From: Octopus vulgaris
Taxonomy: Eukaryota
NCBI GenBank assembly: GCA_951406725.2
Contig: OX597816.1
Coordinates: 92,938,001-93,002,000 of the forward strand
Length of the DNA: 64,000 bases
Direction of reading: 5' to 3'
Shown: positions 6,171 to 58,156 of the stretch, in pieces
Position numbering within the stretch: position 1 is the first letter of the stretch
Layout of the letters: every line of letters begins with the position of its first letter
Notes under the pieces: model-generated
The model's input: the letters and a program-made list of their open reading frames with translations, nothing else
The model's database searches: none
Told to the model about the DNA's origin: nothing
Translations under genes and position numbers: made by a program

Positions 6171-6225
6171 CCTGTCTTCTCTCGAACATAATTAGATAGA
6201 TAAACGGATAGACGGATTATCCAGC

Positions 6226-7137
6226 ATGTCCAGAGCATGGAGACGTGACGAGCTGGATTTATTCGTACGAGCATGGGAGTGCGCCGGCGGAGATAGCCCT
6301 AGCGAGGTGATTGCGGCTGCGCTGAAGAGCAGAGGCTACAAGAGGACAGCGGCTCAGATGGAGCGAAAGAGACAGGAATTCGTGCGCTCATATGCGCTTG
6401 TACGGTCGCACATTGGCGCACTTGATGCCATCTTTGAGAACGAGCGGGGCAAAGATGGCAAGAATGGAGACGATGAAAGAAGTCACCCCCACCTGGTGGA
6501 CGCCCAGGAGGAGGTTTTGAATGAGAAACCTGCCCGGGAAGTGAACCCAGGTGCAAGTTCTCCAACCGGCAGCAAGGGCCATGGAGACGGAGAACCCGGT
6601 GAAGAGGTAGAGGGAGGAAGAAGAACTAAAAGAAGGACTGGAAGAGCTAAAGGAAAAGAAAAAGCTCAAGCAGGACAAAAGAGTGAAACAACCAGGAGTA
6701 GAAGTGGAACCGCAAAGGATGGAACCAAACAGCGCACACGGGTGTGTATGTTCTACCTGAGAGGTTCCTGCTGGCACGGAAAGGAAGGTGCAGGCTGCCG
6801 CTTTGCACATCGGGGACCCTGCCACAGAGACACGAGGCAGATGGACAAACCATCAACACAAAGAAAAGGGATGGACTACGCACCACCTGCCCCAAAGCGG
6901 AGGTACGCAGATGTTGTGCGCGCCACAAACAGCCAACATGATGTTGTCGAAAGAGCAGCTGCTGAGCAACAATCTTTTTTGTGCATGGCACAAAAGATTG
7001 TACAGCAGCTGACCTGGCTTCATCAAACCCAAGCCCGCAGGTGGGACTACCCACTATATACCAGACCACCACAGCAAACAGACACAGGATGGACACCGCC
7101 GGCAACAACGTACACCTCACCTCGATACTCCTACTGA
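6226..7137 (+). CDS. LINE ORF1: N-terminal Myb/SANT(trihelix)-like domain, basic low-complexity linker, CCCH zinc finger
   Basis: 303 aa from an ATG. W..DE..LF..W...I...L..RGY.RT..Q..RK....Y fits the Myb/SANT-like pattern. CMFYLRGSCWHGKEGAGCRFAH (C-x7-C-x8-C-x3-H) lies at 6745-6810. Confidence 0.8.
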   Translation: MSRAWRRDELDLFVRAWECAGGDSPSEVIAAALKSRGYKRTAAQMERKRQEFVRSYALVRSHIGALDAIFENERGKDGKNGDDERSHPHLVDAQEEVLNEKPAREVNPGASSPTGSKGHGDGEPGEEVEGGRRTKRRTGRAKGKEKAQAGQKSETTRSRSGTAKDGTKQRTRVCMFYLRGSCWHGKEGAGCRFAHRGPCHRDTRQMDKPSTQRKGMDYAPPAPKRRYADVVRATNSQHDVVERAAAEQQSFLCMAQKIVQQLTWLHQTQARRWDYPLYTRPPQQTDTGWTPPATTYTSPRYSY

Positions 7138-10085
7138 ACATCAGAGGACTGCAAACACTCAGTAACAGGACAAAGATCCCGTTCCTGAGAGACTTTGTTG
7201 CATGCAATCAAGCCTTATGCATAGCACTTACAGAAACGCACCTGAAACCGGACATAGCAGATGCGGAGTTACACATACCACAGTATGCTGTACTACGGAC
7301 CGACAGGAAAGAAAGGAGTCATGGAGGTGTTGCTATGTACATCCGTGAGGACCTCACACCCCAGGTCCTCTTGTCATACTCAAACTCGGTGTGTGACACA
7401 CTAATTGTACATATTAGGCAACTTGATGTAGTTGTGTGTGCTACATATCGCCCTCCAGATGCCCCAAGCCATGTGGGCAAGTTCGAAGACTGCCTTATAA
7501 AAATAGAAGAAATTCTAACCACATTAGAACAACACATATGTGTGCTTCTTATGGGAGACTTCAATCTGCCCAATGTCAGATGGCCCGAGGGCCTTTCTCT
7601 CCCAGGAATGACAAGATGTGAACGAGGACAGGCGAGGTCCCTCCTGAACCTCATCAACACCCTGTACATGGAGCAGGTAATACTCCAACCAACCAGGGCA
7701 GGTAACACACTGGATCTCTGCTTCACAAATGACATGGATCTCATCCATAATGTGAAAGTGACACCGACACTACTCTCGGATCACAACATGATAGAGCTGA
7801 CCATGTACGGGCCAAAAGAGAGCACGGACATGCAGCCTACAAGAAACCCTCAAAATCTTTCCAGCTTGAACTACCATAAGGCAAACTGGAAACAAATTGA
7901 GAAAGAGATCCTCAAACAAAACTGGCCTGAATGTCTCTCCTCGCCAGACATCGATGTGAAACTTCAACAATTCATGTCTGTAATGCAAGCCATATGCTAC
8001 AAATGTGTCCCAGAGAGAAAGGCCACTGTACACAAGAACAAAATCCCCAGAGAGAGGAAAATTTTAATGAGACGGCGTACGAAATTTTCAAATCGCCTAA
8101 ACAAACAGATTGAAAGCAGTGAAAAGTCCCGCCTAAAAATAAAACTGTTGGAAATCGAAAAATGTCTGCAACTCTCCCATGAAAAAGAAAGAGCAGACAA
8201 AGAAGCCTGGGCTATAGAAAACATAAAATCTAACCCCAGAGCTTTCTACAGGTATGCCAAAGAAACAGCTACAGTGCACTGTAGAATAGGGCCACTCCTT
8301 GAAAAGGATGGCACACTTACAGGAAAACCAATGAGGGTAAGTGAAATACTGAATGAGCAATTCAAGAGTGTTTTCACTCCACCCCTTGGGCATCTCCAAA
8401 TCACCAATCCAACTGACTTTTTTACCACTGCAGATATAAAATCAGAGGCGGCGACGATAGATTACATCGATATAAAGGAAGTCGATGTAACCAAGGCTAT
8501 AGATGAAATGAAAACAGACTCAGCTACTGGCCCCGATGGATTCCCGGCAATCCTCCTAAAAGCATGTAAGAGAGTCCTAGCAAGACCACTGCAGTTCCTC
8601 TTTCAGAGCTTCCTTGCAGCTGGCAAACTTCCAGGAAAACTGAAGGAAGGTAAAATATGCCCCATTCATAAAGGAGGTAGCAGAGCGGAAGCCAAGAACT
8701 ATAGACCTATCTCTCTGACCTCACACATCAGCAAGGTCATGGAACGAATAGTCAGAAGGAAGCTGACCACCTTCCTTGAAGAGAATGACCTGCTGCCCGA
8801 CACCCAACATGGTTTCCGACCAGGGAGAAGCTGTTTAACTCAGCTCCTACAACACTATGACTGGGTGCTGAAACGGCTGCTCAACCACTCAAATGTGGAA
8901 GTGATATATCTCGACTTTGCAAAGGCCTTTGATAAAGTCGATCATGGAATGATATGTCACAAACTGCGTGATCTCAACATAGTTGGAAAACTGGGAGAAT
9001 GGCTTCATGACTTTCTGAAGGATAGAAGTCAGGTGGTAGTAGCCAATGGGGCCACCTCCATTAACACACAAATAGTGAGCGGTGTTCCGCAGGGCACTGT
9101 TCTGGGACCACTACTGTTCATAATGGCCCTCTCAGACATGCCCTCAGCCACGCAGAGAGCCACGATCACAAGTTATGCAGATGATACAAAAGTCTCACAG
9201 GCAATACAGAACCCTGAGGACACTAAACACCTGCAATGTGAGCTGGACGAAATATACAAGTGGGCTGAAAAGAATAGCATGCAGTTCAATGCTGGAAAGT
9301 TTCAAGCTTTATACTATCAGCATGCAAAACTGAATGCAATACCCAATGAATACACTGGACCCGGAGGGATTGCAATCCCAGAGGCACAATCAGTGCGTGA
9401 CCTTGGTATTCACATGAGTGATGACGCGACCTTTCATGTACATGTTGCTAAACTGACAATGAAATGTAGACGGCTGGCTGGATGGATTCTTAGAACCTTT
9501 AGAACAAGAGAACAAGAAACCATGATGGTCCTCTGGAAGACACTTGTCCTAAGCCACTTTGACTATTGCTCTCAGCTATGGTCACCATCCAGTGTCAAGT
9601 TGATCACAGAACTTGAGGCGATCCAACGAAGCTACACAAAGAAGATAGCCTCTATGCAGAATGTAAGCTACTGGGAAAGACTCAAGAGATTAAAATTATA
9701 TTCCCTGGAGCGTAGGCGGGAAAGATATGCCATAATATACATCTGGAAGATCCTGGAGGGAAGTGTCCTGAACTTTGGCATCGAGAGTTACGCAAATGCC
9801 AGAACTGGGCGCCACTGCGTGGTGCCTAGGACTCCAAACCTGCCATCAAGATGTAGGACAAGATTCTGTGATAGCCTGGGCTTCCGAGGCCCACAGCTCT
9901 TCAATATCCTCCCGAAGAACCTGAGAGACCTGCATGGGGTGGATACAAATGTCTTTAAAATGAAGCTGGATCTCTTCCTGTCAGGTGTCCCAGATGAACC
10001 AACTTCACGGCAGGAGGGGCAGATGAGGGCAGCTGCATCGAACTCTCTCATGCACCAAATAGCAGTTGCTAGAAAGCCTCCATGA
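6981..10085 (+). CDS. LINE ORF2: apurinic-like endonuclease plus reverse transcriptase (first in-frame ATG at 7089)
   Basis: APE motifs NIRGL, LTETHL, YRPP, GDFNLP, LDL and SDH. RT motifs [42 protein letters not shown] and RDLG. CR1-like C-terminus [15 protein letters not shown], with no C-terminal CCHC. Confidence 0.97.
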
Positions 10086-11230: not shown

Positions 11231-11628
11231 ATGCATGTGTGTTGCTATTAATATAGATAGACAAAGATATTTTATTAAATTAAAACAAAATCTAAGTTAC
11301 AGAACATTGAAAGATTAACGGATGTACACAGAAAGATTGAATTACATAAACTGAAAAACATGAGTCTAATCAAGTTTACTTCTCTGGATTGATGTGATGA
11401 GTTAGCTGCCATCTTTAAAATGTTAAAATAATCCTTATTAATTGATGAATCTATAGATATAAGCGTCACAAAACTAATGTGTATTTGTGCGCAGTAATTT
11501 TTGTATATGCACCAAGAGTCTAAATAGTCTTTTTAGGAATAATTCTTATTATAAGTGTCAAAAATGGAATTGAGAATTGTTATATTTCAAAATGGTCATT
11601 CTTTTTTTTATTACCAAATAAACACCTG

Positions 11629-11849
11629 CACTATATACTAGTTCTTCAATTCAGCTGTATTATTGGTCTTATTTTAGTGTCCTTTGTCTTAAACTTTTCG
11701 TCACACATCCTGTGACCTTCTCAACGAATCTCCTTCCCACGAGTCTCCTCCTGTCCTGTTTAGTCTATGTAATGGACGACAAATTTAAGACAAAGGACAC
11801 TAAAATAAGAACAATAATAAAACTGAATGAAGAACGAGTATATAGTGCG
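11629..11849. mobile_element. Short fold-back element (~75 bp inverted arms) with a U3-A8 hammerhead-like motif
   Basis: gcactatatactagttcttca...cttttcgtc is inverted to gacgacaaatttaagac...gagtatatagtgc. Minus strand 11691-11724 reads TTGAGAA-g-gtcac-aggatgt-gtgac-GAAA. Confidence 0.6.
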
Positions 11850-13894
11850 CGTATTTATTTAGCAAAAAAATTTACCATCCCAAAATATATTAATATTTGC
11901 TTTTCAACGCAGGAATCTTGTTAAACAAATACATAAAAGTAAGAATTGAAATTATTTTGAGCAGCAACAGTTTTGATATAAATAATTAGTGCGAAACATA
12001 GTGTAGTGTCTTGAAGATTCAAAAATATGGACTCGAATATTAAATTTGCTAAATCTATATGACAGTGCTTGGTGTTGGGTTGCTTAAAGGTGTGTATTTG
12101 CCTGGCTTCTAATCTAACTTACCTGATATGAGAAATTGCAAATTGGTTTAGCGTTAATACCCTTCTTAGAGATGATTACAAGAAAATTTTTCAGTCATGA
12201 ATGATGTAAATACATGTTCCTTAAAATTTGTCACCCCGTTTGTTGATTAGTAGGAATTATATGAAAATTGTCATGTGACAATAGGAGGATCTCGGAAAGA
12301 AACGGAAAATAGCGTTCTCTGAAGATAATATACTCAAAGGAAATTTGTCTAAATGAAATACTTCAAGATGAAGCCATTAAATTTATTATCATTTTGCTTG
12401 TCCCGTTTATATTGAATTTCAAATTAGTAAATCCAGTTTTAAAAGCTTTAAATCACAACCTTAGTAGATTATTTAAAAAACTTGGAGAGTTGAATTTTAC
12501 ACTACAAAATGTATTAGAGTTTTCTTGTATAGAGAAGCCCAAGCTATATAGAGCATCAAGAAAGTTTCAAAAATATATTTAATCTAGAAAAGGAGGTGAT
12601 TATTAGAAGCAACAATATAAAGTGAAGCAGTGAAATATCATGAAGTTTTGAGGCATATCATTGATGTTCTTTTTTTGCTGTGTAAGAAAAGTAGTATTTA
12701 GTAATTCGTCGCACCAAATCGAGGAGCAAAACAATGGAAACTTCAAAATTGGATCCTATTCTCCAAGTACATGTGCTATGAGTAGAAAGATACCAGAAAG
12801 GGACAACCACCTTCAGTTTTACTGCATATATTTTAGATCATAGAAGAAAAGTTTCATAAGATTTTAACTTTGTGAAGGAATACAATTTACTTGAAAAGAA
12901 ACCTTAAATTTTGGCATTATTATGAATGCAACTTCTACTGACTCCTCGTATGTTGAGCGGACAGTATTTCTCTTACGTTAATTTAAAGGATAGTTGGTTT
13001 AAGGTACAAAAATCATTCTCAAGTTCTCAGGCTGCAACAATAAACTTGGAGAATAATTATTCATAGACACCTTGGAATACTGAATTAATCTTTGGGGCCA
13101 CTGCAGGGCAGTGCAAACTACCAATATGATGACACTATACAATAGATTGCGCCCAAGGCGAAAATACTAAAGCAATTTTCAGTGGTAATCTCTCTCCATG
13201 TGGATGCCATGCACTCTATGTGGAATAAATACAGGTGAGTGTATACTAGAATCCTAATATAATATAGAACAGTTCAAAAAATTTATATATTGTTAAGTTT
13301 CACCCATAATTGGAGAAACTTAAAAATCACATACGTTTTTCATTACACAGTATGCCATATATGCGTAGGTCTACCAGACTTGAAATTATCAAACTTTTTG
13401 AATCTTTCTTTACTGATGTTTAGTTAGCCAAGATAGGGAAGAGAGTGAATATAGTATTTGTATATATAAAATGATTTGTTTGTAAGTCTATGTTGGGTGA
13501 TTCGGTATAAACTATTAGGTCCTACGGATATTTCAACGAGTTCAGTATAACCAGAGAGTCCACATTGGCTGTACATGTATCTAAAATTGGAACAGTTCTT
13601 GAAAATTTGATAAATCTATTAAACTGCTAGGAAAGTAACTAGGATAAAACCAAAGAGTCGAAAGAGAGGAGTTGTTAACCTGATGGAAATAACTGGTGCT
13701 GATAATTTGCCAGAAGAGGCTAGCCTCAGAAAATCTGTATTATACATTTTCATTGATAATATTGTTGCAGATTAATTGTATACTTTAATGTTGTTAAGCG
13801 AATGACTGAAAAATTTAATTCAAGTGAGTGGGGATGACGAATAGCTTACAATGCCTAAAGGTGAGTCGGAGAAAATAAAGAAAGACTTAGCAAA

Positions 13895-16584: not shown

Positions 16585-16715
16585 TTGTAAATAAAACGTG
16601 AAAATCAGAGAAAGTTGGATTTTCTTTGAGTAATATATTCTTCTATACACAATCATACACACCTGTGTGTATATATATGTATAATCAAAATAAGCAACAA
16701 GGATATCCAGAGGTA

Positions 16716-16804
16716 ATGCAGTACGATCGTTTCATGCAACTCCATTTAATTGAACAATGCAATCATTACATCAATTTAAAATACAGAGCAATCTTCAGCT
16801 GCAC
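16716..16804 (-). ncRNA. Minimal type I hammerhead (left arm)
   Basis: gtgcag-CTGAAGA-long stem II-GAA-ACGATCGT-A^ctgcat, with a palindromic stem III. Confidence 0.75.
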
Positions 16805-18560
16805 AAAGGCATAGAATTTAATTAAATTAGAACAGATGGACACATTAGTATAAATATACGTAAAATCTCCAAGAAGTTAAATAGATAGACAAAGAACATG
16901 CTGTTCTTATTCCAGCATAGCAGTTACTAAGCTTTTCAAGAAGATATACATTGTTACAGACTCTGCCTGTCACTGATTTTGTTATTTTTATGGGGTCAGT
17001 TTTAATTTATAGACTAGTTCATGAAAACCTTTGTATCTCTAAGGCTGAGAGAATAGAGGGCAGTACTGTTAGGGGTAGGGCTGAGGGAGCAGACAGACAT
17101 CGTAGTTGGTATAATCATAAAAATCAAGATTTATTAGAAGCAATATCATGAGATTTGGTAAAGGAAAAACTTAAAACAAGATGTTAGCTGACAATTAAGG
17201 GGGTCACCCACTATGAGACCATTGATAATGAAACAGGGGAAGTCTTATCATATAGTTAAATATTTTAAACAATGTTGCTATATTGTATACAGTTAAAGTT
17301 TAGTGTTATTCAGAGGATTATTAAGAAGTATATTATAACAAAAGTATAGAAATTTATGAATACTTTTGAGTATATACCAAACTTTTATCATAATAGAGGG
17401 AGGAAAAGAAATTATCCAGAAACAGTTTAATATTTATACATATTGTACACTTAAATACTAACTCATCAGATGGTATCTGTGAATATTGATTAATTGGCAT
17501 ATACTGGTATTAATAAAGGAGTATTGAGGTAAAGGAACGTTCTAATTATATATTAATAAAATTATAATCTAAGCAGTTTTACCATAGTATTAGTAATTAA
17601 GCTATTTTATTTCATTTTCTATGGTGTTCTGCCCTACTTGATTATTTTATAATTAGCCTTTATTTATTTATATAATTAATCTAACTTTTGTATCTCTATA
17701 AATTCATACTTAGCTTATATAAAACTATACTGGTGTATTCACTACTTATAAAAAACTGCTTAGATTATAATTTTATTAATATATAATTAGCATGTTCCTT
17801 TACCTCAATACTCCTTTATTAATACCAGTAAATACCAATTAATCAATATTCACAGATACATCTGATGAGTTAGTATTTAAGTGTACAATATGAGTTAGTA
17901 TCTGATGAGTTAGTATTTAAGTGTACAATAACTATTTCTAGATAATTTCTTTTCCTCTCTTTATTATGATAAAAGTTTGGTATATACTCAAAAGTATTCA
18001 TAAATTTCTATACTTTTGTTATAATATACTTCTTAATAATCCTCTGAATAACCCTAAACTTTAACTGTATACAATATAACAACATTGTTTAAAATATTTA
18101 ACTATAGTACTACATGATAAGACTTCCCCTGTTTCATTATCAATGGTCTGCTAGTGAGCGACCCCCTAAATTGTCAGCTAACATCTTGTTTTAAGTTTTT
18201 CCTTTACCAAATCTCATGATATTGCTTCTAATAAATCTTGATTTTTATGATTATACCAACTATGATGTCTGTCTGCTCCCTCAGTCCTACCCCTAACAGT
18301 ACTGCCCTCTGTTCTCTCAGCCTTAGAGATAGAAAGGTTTTCATGAACTAGTCTATAAATTAAAACTGACCCCATAAAAATAACAAAATTAGTGACAGGC
18401 AGAGTCTGTAACAATGTATATCTTCTTGAAAAGCTTAGTAACTTCTATGCTGGAATAAGAACAGCATGTTCTTTGTCTATCTCCTTAACTTCTTGGAGAT
18501 TTTACGTATAATTATACTAATGTGTCCATCTGTTCTAATTTAATTAAATTCTATGCCTTT

Positions 18561-18649
18561 GTGCAGCTGAAGATTGCTCTGTATTTTAAATTGATGTAAT
18601 GATTGCATTGTTCAATTAAATGGAGTTGCATGAAACGATTGTACTGCAT
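18561..18649 (+). ncRNA. Minimal type I hammerhead (right arm)
   Basis: gtgcag-CTGAAGA-...-GAAA-cgatt-GTA^ctgcat; cleavage predicted after A18643. Confidence 0.72.
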
Positions 18650-18763
18650 TACCTATGGATATCCTTGTTGCTTATTTTGATTTTAATCACCTTAGTTTGA
18701 AATTGTATGGATAATACTGTACTAAATTCTGGTGCCTCAACTTAAGTACCATATTCATCTGAA

Positions 18764-18811
<48 letters not shown>

Positions 18812-39704: not shown

Positions 39705-40029
39705 GTTACAGAGATGTACTTGCATAGCAAGTGACTTGATCTGAGATCGTGTGCTGGAACGAAAACAGTTGCAGCGTTGAAGGTGTTTATAAGCCATTTA
39801 AGAAACACACAAAAACCGTTAGATTCACTTCAACATTTAAATTTAATTTGTCAAAATATTTTCGTCGCTTTGAGACCGCGACCTGTTAGCACGATATTTT
39901 TGTCAGTGAACAGGTCGCGGTCTCAAAGCGACGAAAATATTTTGGCAAATTAAATTTAAATGTTGAAGTGAATGTAACGGTTTTTGTGTGTTTCTTAAAT
40001 GGCTTACAAACACCTTCCACGCTGCAATA
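39705..40029. mobile_element. Fold-back element (119 bp arms) with a G3-C8 hammerhead variant
   Basis: Arms 39769-39887 and 39909-40027, flanked by TA repeats. HHR variant at 39900-39948. Confidence 0.7.
39900..39948 (+). ncRNA. Minimal hammerhead variant (G3-C8 core)
   Basis: ttgtca-GTGAACA-g-gtcgc-ggtctcaaa-gcgac-GAA-AATATT-T^tggcaa (tgacaa in the mirrored arm). Confidence 0.65.
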
Positions 40030-45860: not shown

Positions 45861-46033
45861 GTTTCATGAACAGCCTCGTAAAACTCTGAGTAGAAATCTG
45901 TCGGGATTTTCTCAGCTTAATGAAATAGTATATTACTCTACTTTTGTTATTCGAGTACTATCTTTTTCAGTTTGTTTAGCAGCTATGTGCTTACTTGCGT
46001 GCGTGTGTATATGTATGTATGTTTGTGCATGTA

Positions 46034-47578
46034 CAACCTTGGCCAAAAGTATTAGGCCAACCCAATGTTTTGGGGTTCTGCTATCTCAATGTTAATGAAA
46101 CTCGTGCACATAGTAGATTGTGGTATATTTCACAATATGCATTAGTTTTAATATCTGGTTGACCCTCATTTAGCATAAATTACTGCTTTTATACTGTACT
46201 GTACATAGCACCCAATTATGAGTAAGACCAACGTCCAACATTAACTTATGTTTCCTTGATTATTTCAGAGTTTTATGCTAAAATACATTGTAGATACAGT
46301 TAATAAGCAGTAAAATGCCTAAAACAAGGGAGTTGGGTGAGTGTAAGCGAGGTCAAATCGTAGATCATCATGAAGATAGAATGTCTCAAAGGCAAATTGC
46401 TCAGAAGATGAAATGTTCTCGATGTGCTGTGAAAACGACCCTCAAGCACTTCAGAGAGACAAGACATGTGAAGACAATACAAAGAACAGGCAGAAAAAAG
46501 GTTACATCACCTCGTGATGATAGATCCATCATCCGTCAGTCGCTCAGAAACAGAAGAAAAACATCGTCGGAGCTCTGTGCGGACTTCAACAAGGCAGATA
46601 CTTCAAAAATATCAACCAGAACTGTTAGAAGAAGGCTTGTAGAGTACGGTCTGAAAGGTTGTAAAGCCAGGAAGAAGCCATGGGTTTCTGAAGCGAATAT
46701 GGAAAAAAGTCTTCTGTGGGCCAAAAACCACTCAAATTGGACCAGTGAGCAATGGTCAAAAGTGATATGGTCTGATGAAAGTAACTATGAGGTAAGATAG
46801 TACATGTATTCAATCAACATATAAACTTAATGTATCTGGTTTGTTGCCCAAAATATATAAAAAAGTATCCGACATAAAGCTAATATTATTTTTCATATTC
46901 TTACTCGGGTTTTCAGTACATCTGGTGCAACTATCATGCGTCGCAGATGTGGGAAGCATTTAAGGTTGAGTGTCTGGTACCAACCGTAAAAGATGGGAGT
47001 GGTTCTAACATGGTGTGGGCCTGCATGTCTGCCACAGGATCCGGAGAATTGTTTTTATGTAAGGGAAGGATAAATTCAGCTACCTATGCTTCTATATTAT
47101 CAGATGTTTTAGAGCCATCAATTGTTAAATTGCATCCAGGAGTGTCGAAAAACAGTGTTATCTTTCAACAAGACAACGCTTCATGTCATACAGCAAAGAA
47201 TACTCATCAGTGGTTTAAGACAGAGTATTATTCTCATGGACTGTCCAGTTCAAAGTCCCGATCTAAATCCGATCGAACACCTAGCTTCTTGGTGAAGCTA
47301 TCAGGAACAGGAACACAACAATTGAAAATAAGGAGCATTTGTACCAAACGTTAAGAGAAGAATGGAGTAAAATTGCACCTAGCACCTGGAAGAAACTAGT
47401 TGATTCAATGCCTAACCGTATAAAAGCGGTAATTGATGCTAAAAGCGGGTCAGCCAGATATTAACCCTAATGTATATTGTGAAATATGCCATAATCTACC
47501 ATGTGCATGAGTTTCATTAACATTGAGATAGCAGAACTCCAAAACATTGGAGTGGCCTAATACTTTTGGCCAAGGCTG
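46034..47578 (+). mobile_element. Tc1-family transposon with ~132 bp TIRs
   Basis: TIRs at 46034-46165 and 47447-47578, with TA on both sides. Confidence 0.93.
46315..47464 (+). pseudogene. Tc1 DDE transposase pseudogene with one intron (46792-46908)
   Basis: MPKTRELGECKRGQIV HTH, GRKKVTSPRDDR, WSDES, FQQDNASCH and SPDLNPIEH. The second exon has frameshifts. Confidence 0.88.
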
Positions 47579-47980
47579 TATATATATATATATATATATA
47601 CATAAGGTTGCCAACCACCAATCCTCAAATGCCTGCACAGGTTGCCCCCACCCACAACATTATGCACCCTTGCAAAACTCTAATTTAGCTTCCATATACG
47701 AGATGTGCACACGCAGACGCACACATACTCCGACACACGCCAAACACTTATACGTACACACCCACACATACGCACACACATGTACACCCCACACACACAC
47801 ACATATTCACCAGCTTTACTTCTGCCATATCTAGACACTGCGGCGCCACCAGTTTCCGAAAAGGAAGTGTGGTCGCTGAACAACTGATATTCTTTGACGA
47901 CACCATGTGAACCACCTTGGCCAATAGCAGCCTATCTTTTGGTAGCCATCTTGAACTTCCTGTATTTCTCCATTCGGCAA

Positions 47981-56203: not shown

Positions 56204-57236
56204 TGCATAGGCAAAAGGTGAAGTAACATGACTAGAAAAAATTAAAGTTTGAGTACAGAATGGCTTGAAGTCTTCACTCTGGTGCCATGGCTTTGAGTTT
56301 AATCATTTCTGGTTCGATAAATACAATTACCAGTCCAGTATTAATTCTTCTTTCCTCTCTCTCTCCCCTCTCTCTCTCTCTCTTTCTCCCCACCACTCTC
56401 TCTCTAAGGAAAAAGTCGACTGTATTCAAACATGGAAATAACAGCGTCTCTACAACTCCACTTCATATTTCCCATTGTCATTCATATATCATAGAAGTGA
56501 GTAGAATAGAGGTTTCGAGTTACGGAATTCTATACTATCGAGAAGATTTTCAGAAACAACGTTTTAAATAATGTGTAGGGGAGGGGTTTGACGGATGCCT
56601 GAAATTAAAGAGAAATAACTGAAATATGGTATTAATGGATATAGACAAAGTGACGACGTATGGCTTTATAAACGATAATGATAAATAAGTAATAGAAACG
56701 AGGAACGAATCAATCAATAAATATCTGGTTAAAGATTAGATTATTTATAGAGCTTAGGTCCCAATGTAGATGATTAGTCTGACAGGGATGAAAACTAGGT
56801 GGATAAAACAGTAATAAGCTATTAGTTAGACGTAGTTCGACGTATTTAACTGAAGTTTAAGAGTGTAATGAGAGAAGCGAAGGGCATTACAGGAAGGTGA
56901 TGAAATTAGTCAGGAGAGGTGTGAAGTGACTGCTGTGTAAGGAAAGTAATGTTCTAATATTTTACTCGGAGAGATAAGTAGTGTAGGTGGATTTTTATTG
57001 TAGTAAAGATGAAAATGTGCCAACAGTTTATGTAAGAAAGAACATGGGGAAGTTGCTAAGACGGTGGTCAAGATTAGAAATAGGTAGGTTGGTAGGTAGG
57101 TAGGTTAATTCTTATTTTGGCAGGTGAATTGATTCTAATTTTAATGTAAGTAACTAAATGGAGAAGATGGATGAGGTTAGGAGTAGGAAATTTTTATTCT
57201 AGTGCAGTGAGAAAGGAGAAAAACTTACTATACATA

Positions 57237-57393
57237 TAGGCGCAGGCATGGCTATGTAGTAAGAAGTTTGCTTCTCAGCCACATGGTTCCAGGTTCAGCC
57301 CTATTGTGTGGTACCTTGAGCAGATGTCTTCTACTCAGGCCGAATAAAGCTTTGTGAGTGGATTTTGTAGAAAGAAACTGAAAGAAACCCGTC

Positions 57394-57434
<41 letters not shown>

Positions 57435-57805
57435 GTTGAATATAGTACTTAAGTTATAGGTACCAGAATTTAGTATGTTATTATCCAAATAATTCAGAAT
57501 GGGGTGATTATAATCAAAATAAGCAACAAGGATATCTGCATTACCTCTGGATATCCTTGTTGCTTATTTTGATTATATATATACACGTGTATGTGTGTGC
57601 ATTTGTGCCTGTCCCTTATTACCGTTTGGCAACCGGTGTTAGTGTGTTTACGTCCTCATAACTTAGCGATTTGGCAAAACAGACCCATAAAATAAGTGCC
57701 AGGCTTAAAAACAAATACAAAACAATAATTGGTTCGACTAAAATTCTTCAAGTCGGTACCCTAGCTTGGCCGCAGTGAAATGACTGAGACAAGTAAAAGA
57801 TAAAG
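57237..57805 (+). mobile_element. SINE family A with a mini fold-back insert (57430-57576)
   Basis: Head and tail are present. The insert matches the terminus of the 16683-18764 element. Confidence 0.8.
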
Positions 57806-58156
57806 ATATATGTTGCAAAGAGAAGACAGTGAACTGGCAGAAACAATGATGTTGAATAGGATACTTTGCAACTTTTATTTCGACTCTCTTCATTTATTTT
57901 CAAATTCTGCTGTGGGTCAATTTTCTCTTTCATTCTTTCAGAGTCGACAAAAAAAAAGTACTTATTTACGGCGGTGAATTGTTTGGGTTTCGCATAGGAT
58001 GTCATGCGATATTCGTTCCCACTTATTACATTCTGAGCTGAAATCCCGTTCCGTCACCGAAAAACTTTGCGAAGTCAGACGGGAGTTGCGACCGCTAGGT
58101 AGTATCAGAAATTTGGAAAACTAACGGAAACATAAATCCGTGGTTCGAGCGGGCTA

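Follow-up and report, generated by a model that had tools for sequence, protein, structure and literature searches.

A fold-back insertion in a microsatellite

The window analysed here is a 64,000-nucleotide stretch of the Octopus vulgaris genome (assembly GCA_951406725.2, contig OX597816.1, positions 92,938,001 to 93,002,000), and the locus of interest within it is a 147-base fold-back insertion in which an inverted arm and a sense arm of one Penelope-like family are joined. Element positions are counted so that +1 is the C following GTA (GUA in the RNA), which in a longer copy in the same window falls at 16721 on the minus strand and at 18644 on the plus strand. The inverted, long-tailed arm (57430..57536, minus strand) corresponds in reverse complement to +121 through +15 and agrees with the majority sequence of its subtype in 103/110 positions over +15..+124; the sense, short-tailed arm (57536..57577, plus strand) matches the family without a difference from +1 up to about +38..+42, its 3′ end being blurred by TA. 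The two meet at a C (57536) that belongs to both, a 1-nt microhomology of junction class i16/g0/m1, and as this C fits either arm, the start of the sense piece may be placed at +1 or at +2. An initial reading made from the letters of the window (the sequence-only reading) had described a plus-oriented piece that begins at the predicted cut, shares its C with the other arm and is fused to an inverted copy of the element terminus, and the coordinates bear out both parts of that description.

The insertion lies in a (TA)n run (left side at 57394..57429), and since TA also follows the sense arm, no target-site duplication is readable at this locus. On either side stands one half of a host interspersed repeat that is unrelated to the element, the left half (57231..57400) being 74-78% and the right half (57586..57810) 68-72% identical to six other copies in the window. 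In other window copies the two halves are contiguous, so the focal pair represents an insertion into the (TA)n run of the host repeat. An assembly chimera was considered as the source of the junction and rejected, as the element interrupts the host repeat cleanly. Among the pieces listed from the RNA-seq contigs of four runs, none bridges the junction, a result that speaks neither for nor against it.

Elsewhere in the window, an apparently intact open frame of 1039 codons with endonuclease and RT motifs (6966-10085, plus strand), which we take to be that of a LINE-type non-LTR retrotransposon, is preceded by a 313-codon frame (6196-7137) with what is presumably a CCCH-like motif. Inverted terminal repeats of ~190 bp (46006-47602, 86% identical) surround pieces at 46294-47354 that we assume to derive from a Tc1/mariner-like transposase. 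Local inverted repeats of ~260 bp are also found at 39769-40027 and 11606-11870 (92% and 74% identical), and a sequence search of the window revealed no relation of either to the Penelope-like family.

The element family and its copies

The longer copy consists of an inverted, short-tailed arm (16680..17750, minus strand) and a sense, long-tailed arm (17578..18764, plus strand, with an approximate inner boundary), both of which read through the cut site. A search of the genome (2.8 Gb, 227 contigs) with a 221-base family query yielded 1833 candidate places. Broken ORF pieces of the family (L302-L330), reached by stepwise extension upstream, carry the RT motifs F..FDINSYY, MGS..SAE and YRDD together with an endonuclease region, in the order RT and then GIY-YIG-type endonuclease that characterizes EN+ Penelope-like elements. 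The RT piece is 36% identical to the intact RT-EN proteins P0001-P0003 and the EN piece shares 32% identity with P0001 (E 2e-21), among whose atlas neighbours GIY-YIG, RVT_1 and HTH_animal appear on part of the members. Pfam returned no significant match for the family ORF pieces or for P0001-P0004, a PDB sequence search with P0001 found nothing significant, and no intact ORF was found among the family copies.

On the same strand as the ORF, a hammerhead-bearing terminus lies downstream in L331, L333, L337/338 and L341 and directly upstream in L488, L495, L498 and L507; the ATG stands at +185 to +187, or at +168 in a deleted copy. By this layout of pseudo-LTR, ORF and pseudo-LTR, the family is, as judged from its sequence, a Penelope-like element with remnants of RT and of a GIY-YIG-type endonuclease, an element class that is already known. 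An inverted 5′-truncated copy, a tail at one end and microsatellite targets are all found in the family. The segment that connects RT to EN holds, before EN, a Zn-finger-like cysteine motif (CNCR...CPL..C). We assume that the family belongs to the Neptune clade, a label given from this linker motif rather than from an RT tree. A Zn-finger-like linker motif is described as a Neptune feature common to Nematis (PMC8557442).

Some further traits of these copies can be recorded. The RT-EN linker (L302-L330) contains long poly-asparagine runs encoded by (AAT)n microsatellites. The 3′ region between ORF and hammerhead (L298 and relatives, L331, L333) is AT-rich, 3-4 kb long, and includes an internal duplication, ~900 bp in length and degenerate (65-70% identity). 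Just before the ATG at ~+186 (L488:1062-1250, L495, L498, L507) there is a splice-acceptor-like, pyrimidine-rich run ending in AG, which may belong to a 5′ UTR intron as in Penelope.

The predicted hammerhead ribozyme

Each arm of the longer copy contains a predicted minimal type I hammerhead (16716..16804, minus strand, with the cut expected between 16722 and 16721; 18561..18649, plus strand, with the cut expected between 18643 and 18644). Canonical hammerhead numbering of the subfamily to which we refer as A puts the predicted site at GUA^C, in agreement with the sequence-only reading. The subfamily A hammerhead has a helix I of GUGCAG/CUGCAU, the core CUGAAGA...GAAA and a helix III of C-G with a palindromic loop. 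Across subfamilies the core is conserved (CUGAAGA, CUGAGGA or CUGAUGA, with GAAAC and GUA) and conforms to CUGANGA...GAAA...NUH, and helices I (GUGCAG/CUGCAU, AUUGG/CCAAA, UGUGG/CUACA, UUUAG/CUAAA, UCGG/CCGA) and II (GUAC/GUAC, GCAC/GUGC, UUGC/GCAU) vary through compensatory changes, as read from listings rather than from a formal covariation statistic.

Helix III is a short palindrome, with a dimer of ACGAUCGU or ACAAUUGU at -12.0 or -8.4 kcal/mol. For helix I, the duplex energy is -7.0 kcal/mol in A, against -1.6 to -2.5 for B and -3.4 for C. In place of the G10.1-C11.1 pair, subfamily A has U.U, and part of subfamily B has G-C; the U.U lowers the activity to be expected, the pair being usual but not strict. 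At the gathering threshold, Rfam recognized nothing in the window (0 matches). Folded as a monomer, the sequence does not outperform its shuffles (z -0.34), which is to be expected if the ribozyme works as a dimer. Hammerheads of other, more distant subfamilies occur at L184:69 (plus strand) and L512:949-1047; they share the tail and have a canonical or near-canonical GUAC helix II.

Start points of truncated copies

By itself, a single locus that starts at the cut is no evidence of cleavage, as 23/26 positions between -18 and +8 contain apparent starts and chance would put about 5 at +1. The sequence-only reading had proposed a histogram of 5′ truncation points, and this was compiled from 2056 subfamily A arms with an exact +8..+27 anchor. 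A truncation filter (no G at -22, -21 and -19) passes 205/2056 of these; about 9/10 of the anchor-bearing arms are not caught by it and therefore mostly read through the cut site. An apparent 5′ start was scored for 190 arms, from the 190 of 205 matches that were listed, the 15 others being on late contigs.

Among the matches listed, the 190 arms comprise 6, 7, 4, 11, 5, 2, 7 and 9 starts at -18, -17, -15, -14, -13, -12, -11 and -10; 4, 4, 4, 2, 8, 13 and 6 at -8, -7, -6, -4, -3, -2 and -1; and 29, 3, 5, 9, 12, 6, 27 and 7 at +1 to +8. The other C positions (-15, -8, -4 and +4) account for 4, 4, 2 and 9 of these arms, against the 29 at +1. The focal piece, which had been presented as a single instance, is thus one of a class that makes up 29/190 arms genome-wide, among the matches listed.

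The null models take account of the filter and of a slope fitted to the data. A start at +1 is seen in 13/101 arms that have filler or lack an identified donor, versus 3.1 expected (p=1.5e-5). For filler-free inverted junctions, where the microhomology weights were fitted outside the cut site, the count is 12/61 versus 1.3-1.7 (p about 1e-7 or less), although these 12 represent only 5 junction classes. A further 28 direct-donor arms fall outside both groups. With these and 4 hand-flagged +1 arms dropped and identical contexts collapsed, 16/140 remain at +1 versus 4.6, and further collapse by hand leaves 11 classes versus 4.4 expected (p=0.005). It is very improbable that the focal locus is a random truncation and the excess a product of filter bias or repeated counting: the filter is indeed sequence dependent, starts occur at nearly every position and some five arms are due at +1 anyway, but the position was named in advance, the nulls contain the filter, the loci with recurrent junctions have independent flanks, and an unfiltered search gave 7-9 truncation-type +1 starts among 30 of 101 matches, a similar rate.

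A scan for spikes places +7 first (LRT 18.0) and +1 second (15.3); without +7 and +8, +1 comes first (21.1) and the next position reaches 3.6. The peak at +7 is read as TA microhomology at the edge of the anchor, because it is as common in the sister subfamilies (27/190 arms in A, 12/92 in B and 7/30 in C/D, among the matches listed). This bears on the idea that reverse transcriptase stalls at the folded, uncut hammerhead (at helix I or at an intermolecular helix III) and falls off near +1. Stalling on entering helix I should be visible at +7, yet +7 does not distinguish A from its sisters, and stalling before helix III should be visible at -1, where 6 arms start, and in all subfamilies; helix I is nevertheless strongest in A, and uncut RNA is reported as the dominant in vitro substrate of a related element (PMC11167929). 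On balance, stalling is an improbable source of the excess.

Sister subfamilies, ORF-bearing copies and transcripts

The spike at +1 in subfamily A (29/190, among the matches listed) has no clear counterpart in B or C/D, so that the histogram favours the original proposal for one subfamily only. For B, 205 matches were found, of which 100 were listed and 92 arms scored, with 6 listed rows left aside; 81 were kept after removal of 9 with an indel or deletion and 2 tandem repeats. Four of these 81 arms, among the matches listed, start at +1 versus 2.6 expected (p=0.28), or 6 versus 2.7 if a variant base is allowed (p=0.06). In C/D, 0/30 arms from 182 matches start there, and inspection by eye gave 1-2 among the 100 of 182 matches that were listed. 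None of the four ORF-bearing copies with an upstream pseudo-LTR starts at +1 (0/4), and the idea that cleavage gives rise to the 5′ ends of such copies was rejected.

RNA-seq reads of a related organism (three runs, ~6% of each) show no pile-up of beginnings or ends at the cut site and depth is continuous across it; the check is uninformative for randomly fragmented libraries and an element with thousands of copies.

Fold-back junctions and tails

Thirty-five fold-back loci, listed without use of the truncation filter, were classed by eye. A TGCA palindrome (+2..+5) forms the junction in 13/35, a CAG-type junction (one arm reaching +1, with a 1-nt overlap) in 4/35, a GTA overlap in 4/35 and the palindrome ACGATCGT upstream of the cut in 4/35. 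Both arms end exactly at +1 in 2/35, probably one duplicated event, TGCA at -17 is paired with TGCA at +2 in 2/35, and GTAC across the cut is seen in 1/35, besides five single cases. TGCA palindromes had been removed by the truncation filter; if counted, they would contribute up to 26 arms at an apparent +2, and the raw contrast between +1 and +2 is accordingly overstated. The null gives the two palindromes nearly equal weight, so that 13 TGCA cases versus 1 of GTAC (p=0.001) still speak for a boundary at the cut. TGCA stacks more stably than GTAC, which weakens GTAC as a control.

These classes are also the ground on which cleavage has to be weighed against a sequence-specific joining hot spot, in which no RNA is cut, CTGCA/TGCA favours fold-back of the cDNA or template switching, and the partner arm supplies the C to cDNAs that end at +2 or nearby. 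The spike is confined to the subfamily with TGCA at +2..+5, more than a third of the fold-backs (13/35) are TGCA palindromes, and most +1 junctions share their C with the partner arm and recur in few classes, all of which speak for a hot spot. On the other hand, the null that weights microhomology expects only the 1.3-1.7 arms at +1 given above; the upstream TGCA at -17 is rarely used (the 2 loci paired with +2, and 2 self-palindromes); the donor supplies no C in several +1 starts (L184, L196, L140 and L221, in the last of which the previous tail is joined directly to +1); and unambiguous +2 starts number only 3 among the 190 arms of the matches listed. A hot spot, including the variant in which the partner provides the C, consequently seems a doubtful though serious explanation.

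Flanks are unrelated among nine loci of the CAG type and among five of the GATAT(C) type, to which the focal locus belongs. For the nine CAG-type loci, the unrelated flanks, the presence of both tail subtypes and the several tail ends imply independent insertions, and a propagated master mini-element behind the recurrent junctions was rejected, as flanks, tail subtypes and tail ends differ.

Arms end at about +39 (short tail, 102), further out (long tail, 102) or otherwise (19). Fold-backs pair a long with a short tail in 17/21 cases and two short tails in 4/21, and never two long ones, which agrees with reverse transcription starting at two internal sites. In CAG-type fold-backs with unequal tails (L110, L113, L114, L156, L186, L187, L053, L163), the arm that starts at +1 is the long-tailed one in 7/8 (p=0.07); the focal locus is opposite to this trend, its +1 arm being short-tailed.

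Interpretation and proposed mechanism

We regard the +1 excess as the probable genomic footprint, in one subfamily, of occasional cleavage in vivo, and assign this sequence-based reading a probability of roughly 0.6. As new evidence, the family-wide footprint is of moderate strength. The focal sense arm likely goes back to reverse transcription of a transcript that had cleaved itself, with the 3′ product as template. The sequence-only reading had drawn this conclusion from the locus itself, which alone proves nothing; given the spike across subfamily A, it becomes the best reading. With ~4/5 of the +1 starts being excess and cleavage put at roughly 0.7 as their cause, the focal locus would stem from cut RNA with a probability of about 0.55-0.6. 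The inverted arm is an ordinary Penelope-like inverted truncated copy that needs no ribozyme; cleavage was rejected as its origin, since inversions occur at all truncation points.

The mechanism that we envisage would run as follows: (i) the endonuclease would nick both strands of the (TA)n target, (ii) priming of two cDNAs would take place at two internal sites (about +39 and +121 to +131), (iii) a small share of the templates would have been cut by the dimeric hammerhead, such that cDNA synthesis ends by run-off at +1 and leaves a 3′ G, and (iv) the ends of the two cDNAs would be joined, with base pairing between the terminal G and a C in the partner (at the focal locus, the C opposite +15). 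Alternatively, the ends could be joined through the TGCA palindrome that lies one base inside the cut. The partners in 1-nt junctions are minus-strand C positions opposite +3, +14, +15 and +36, as a fixed 3′ G would predict. Cleavage would be a minor route, accounting for a few percent of arms, and may be strongest in A because helix I is most stable there, a link drawn post hoc. For the full scheme, in which the stability of helix I determines how often a minimal hammerhead cuts germ-line RNA, and the resulting 3′ fragments are copied and then linked end to end as fold-back mini-elements, we see the chances as about even.

Relation to known systems

Pseudo-LTR hammerheads, inverted truncated copies, tails and microsatellite targeting have all been described for Penelope-like elements (PMC4209133; PMC8557442). 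As set out in the account of EN+ elements of the Neptune type, these share with the present family a hammerhead pseudo-LTR on both sides of one RT-EN ORF, heavy 5′ truncation with an inverted truncated 5′ copy, a tail at one end and microsatellite targets, and differ in a tail difference of 30-40 nt, compared with about 85-90 nt here; where that account treats the hammerhead, its function is called unclear and no copy ends are reported at the cut (PMC8557442). The minimal type I hammerheads described for metazoan Penelope-like elements likewise have the same core boxes, a palindromic short helix III that needs a dimer, a long helix II and covariation among families in one genome, whereas their G10.1-C11.1 pair is conserved and replaced by U.U in subfamily A; low activity in vitro is reported for them, and in vivo evidence is stated to be lacking (PMC4209133).

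A parallel to the proposed mechanism is PAc/Poseidon of the green anole, for which cutting and extension of both target strands and reverse transcription from two internal sites downstream of the hammerhead are described (PMC11167929). The protein is predicted to be a dimer, most templates are uncut, and cleavage is protein-assisted in vitro (PMC11167929). Its ORF starts inside the hammerhead, unlike the ATG at about +186 here, and no RNA-seq reads are described as beginning or ending at the cut, whereas a minority of genomic copies start there in the octopus; uncut RNA as the main substrate and the lack of reads at the cut fit cleavage as a minor route (PMC11167929).

In R2, the cut site of an HDV-like ribozyme likewise marks genomic 5′ junctions, and chance microhomology is described as priming the second strand; the ribozyme class is different, and the R2 cut defines full-length 5′ ends, whereas here it marks only short by-products (PMC3774820). 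Non-LTR retrozymes are presented as non-coding, related to Penelope-like elements and equipped with dimeric type I hammerheads; they are tandem direct repeats that each keep a complete ribozyme, in contrast to the focal mini-element, which is an inverted pair without the core (PMC7229834; bioRxiv 10.64898/2026.07.22.740005). Unit-length RNAs of such retrozymes have been seen in vivo (PMC7229834). In the literature covered, with supplements and most subscription journals outside its scope, no report was found of Penelope-like copies enriched at the cut site.

In the literature covered, the hammerheads of animal Penelope-like elements are weakly active in vitro and dispensable for insertion in vitro, and RNA-seq shows no reads at the site. 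A spike at +1 would be indirect evidence, from germ-line insertions, that they cut in vivo, with cleavage as a minor route by which the 5′ ends of ORF-bearing copies are not defined. For the start-point test an assembly is sufficient, and any family can be examined in this way; its outcome here predicts more cleavage in A than in B and C. If the reading is true, past ribozyme activity could be read from genome assemblies, as from a fossil record, for each subfamily.
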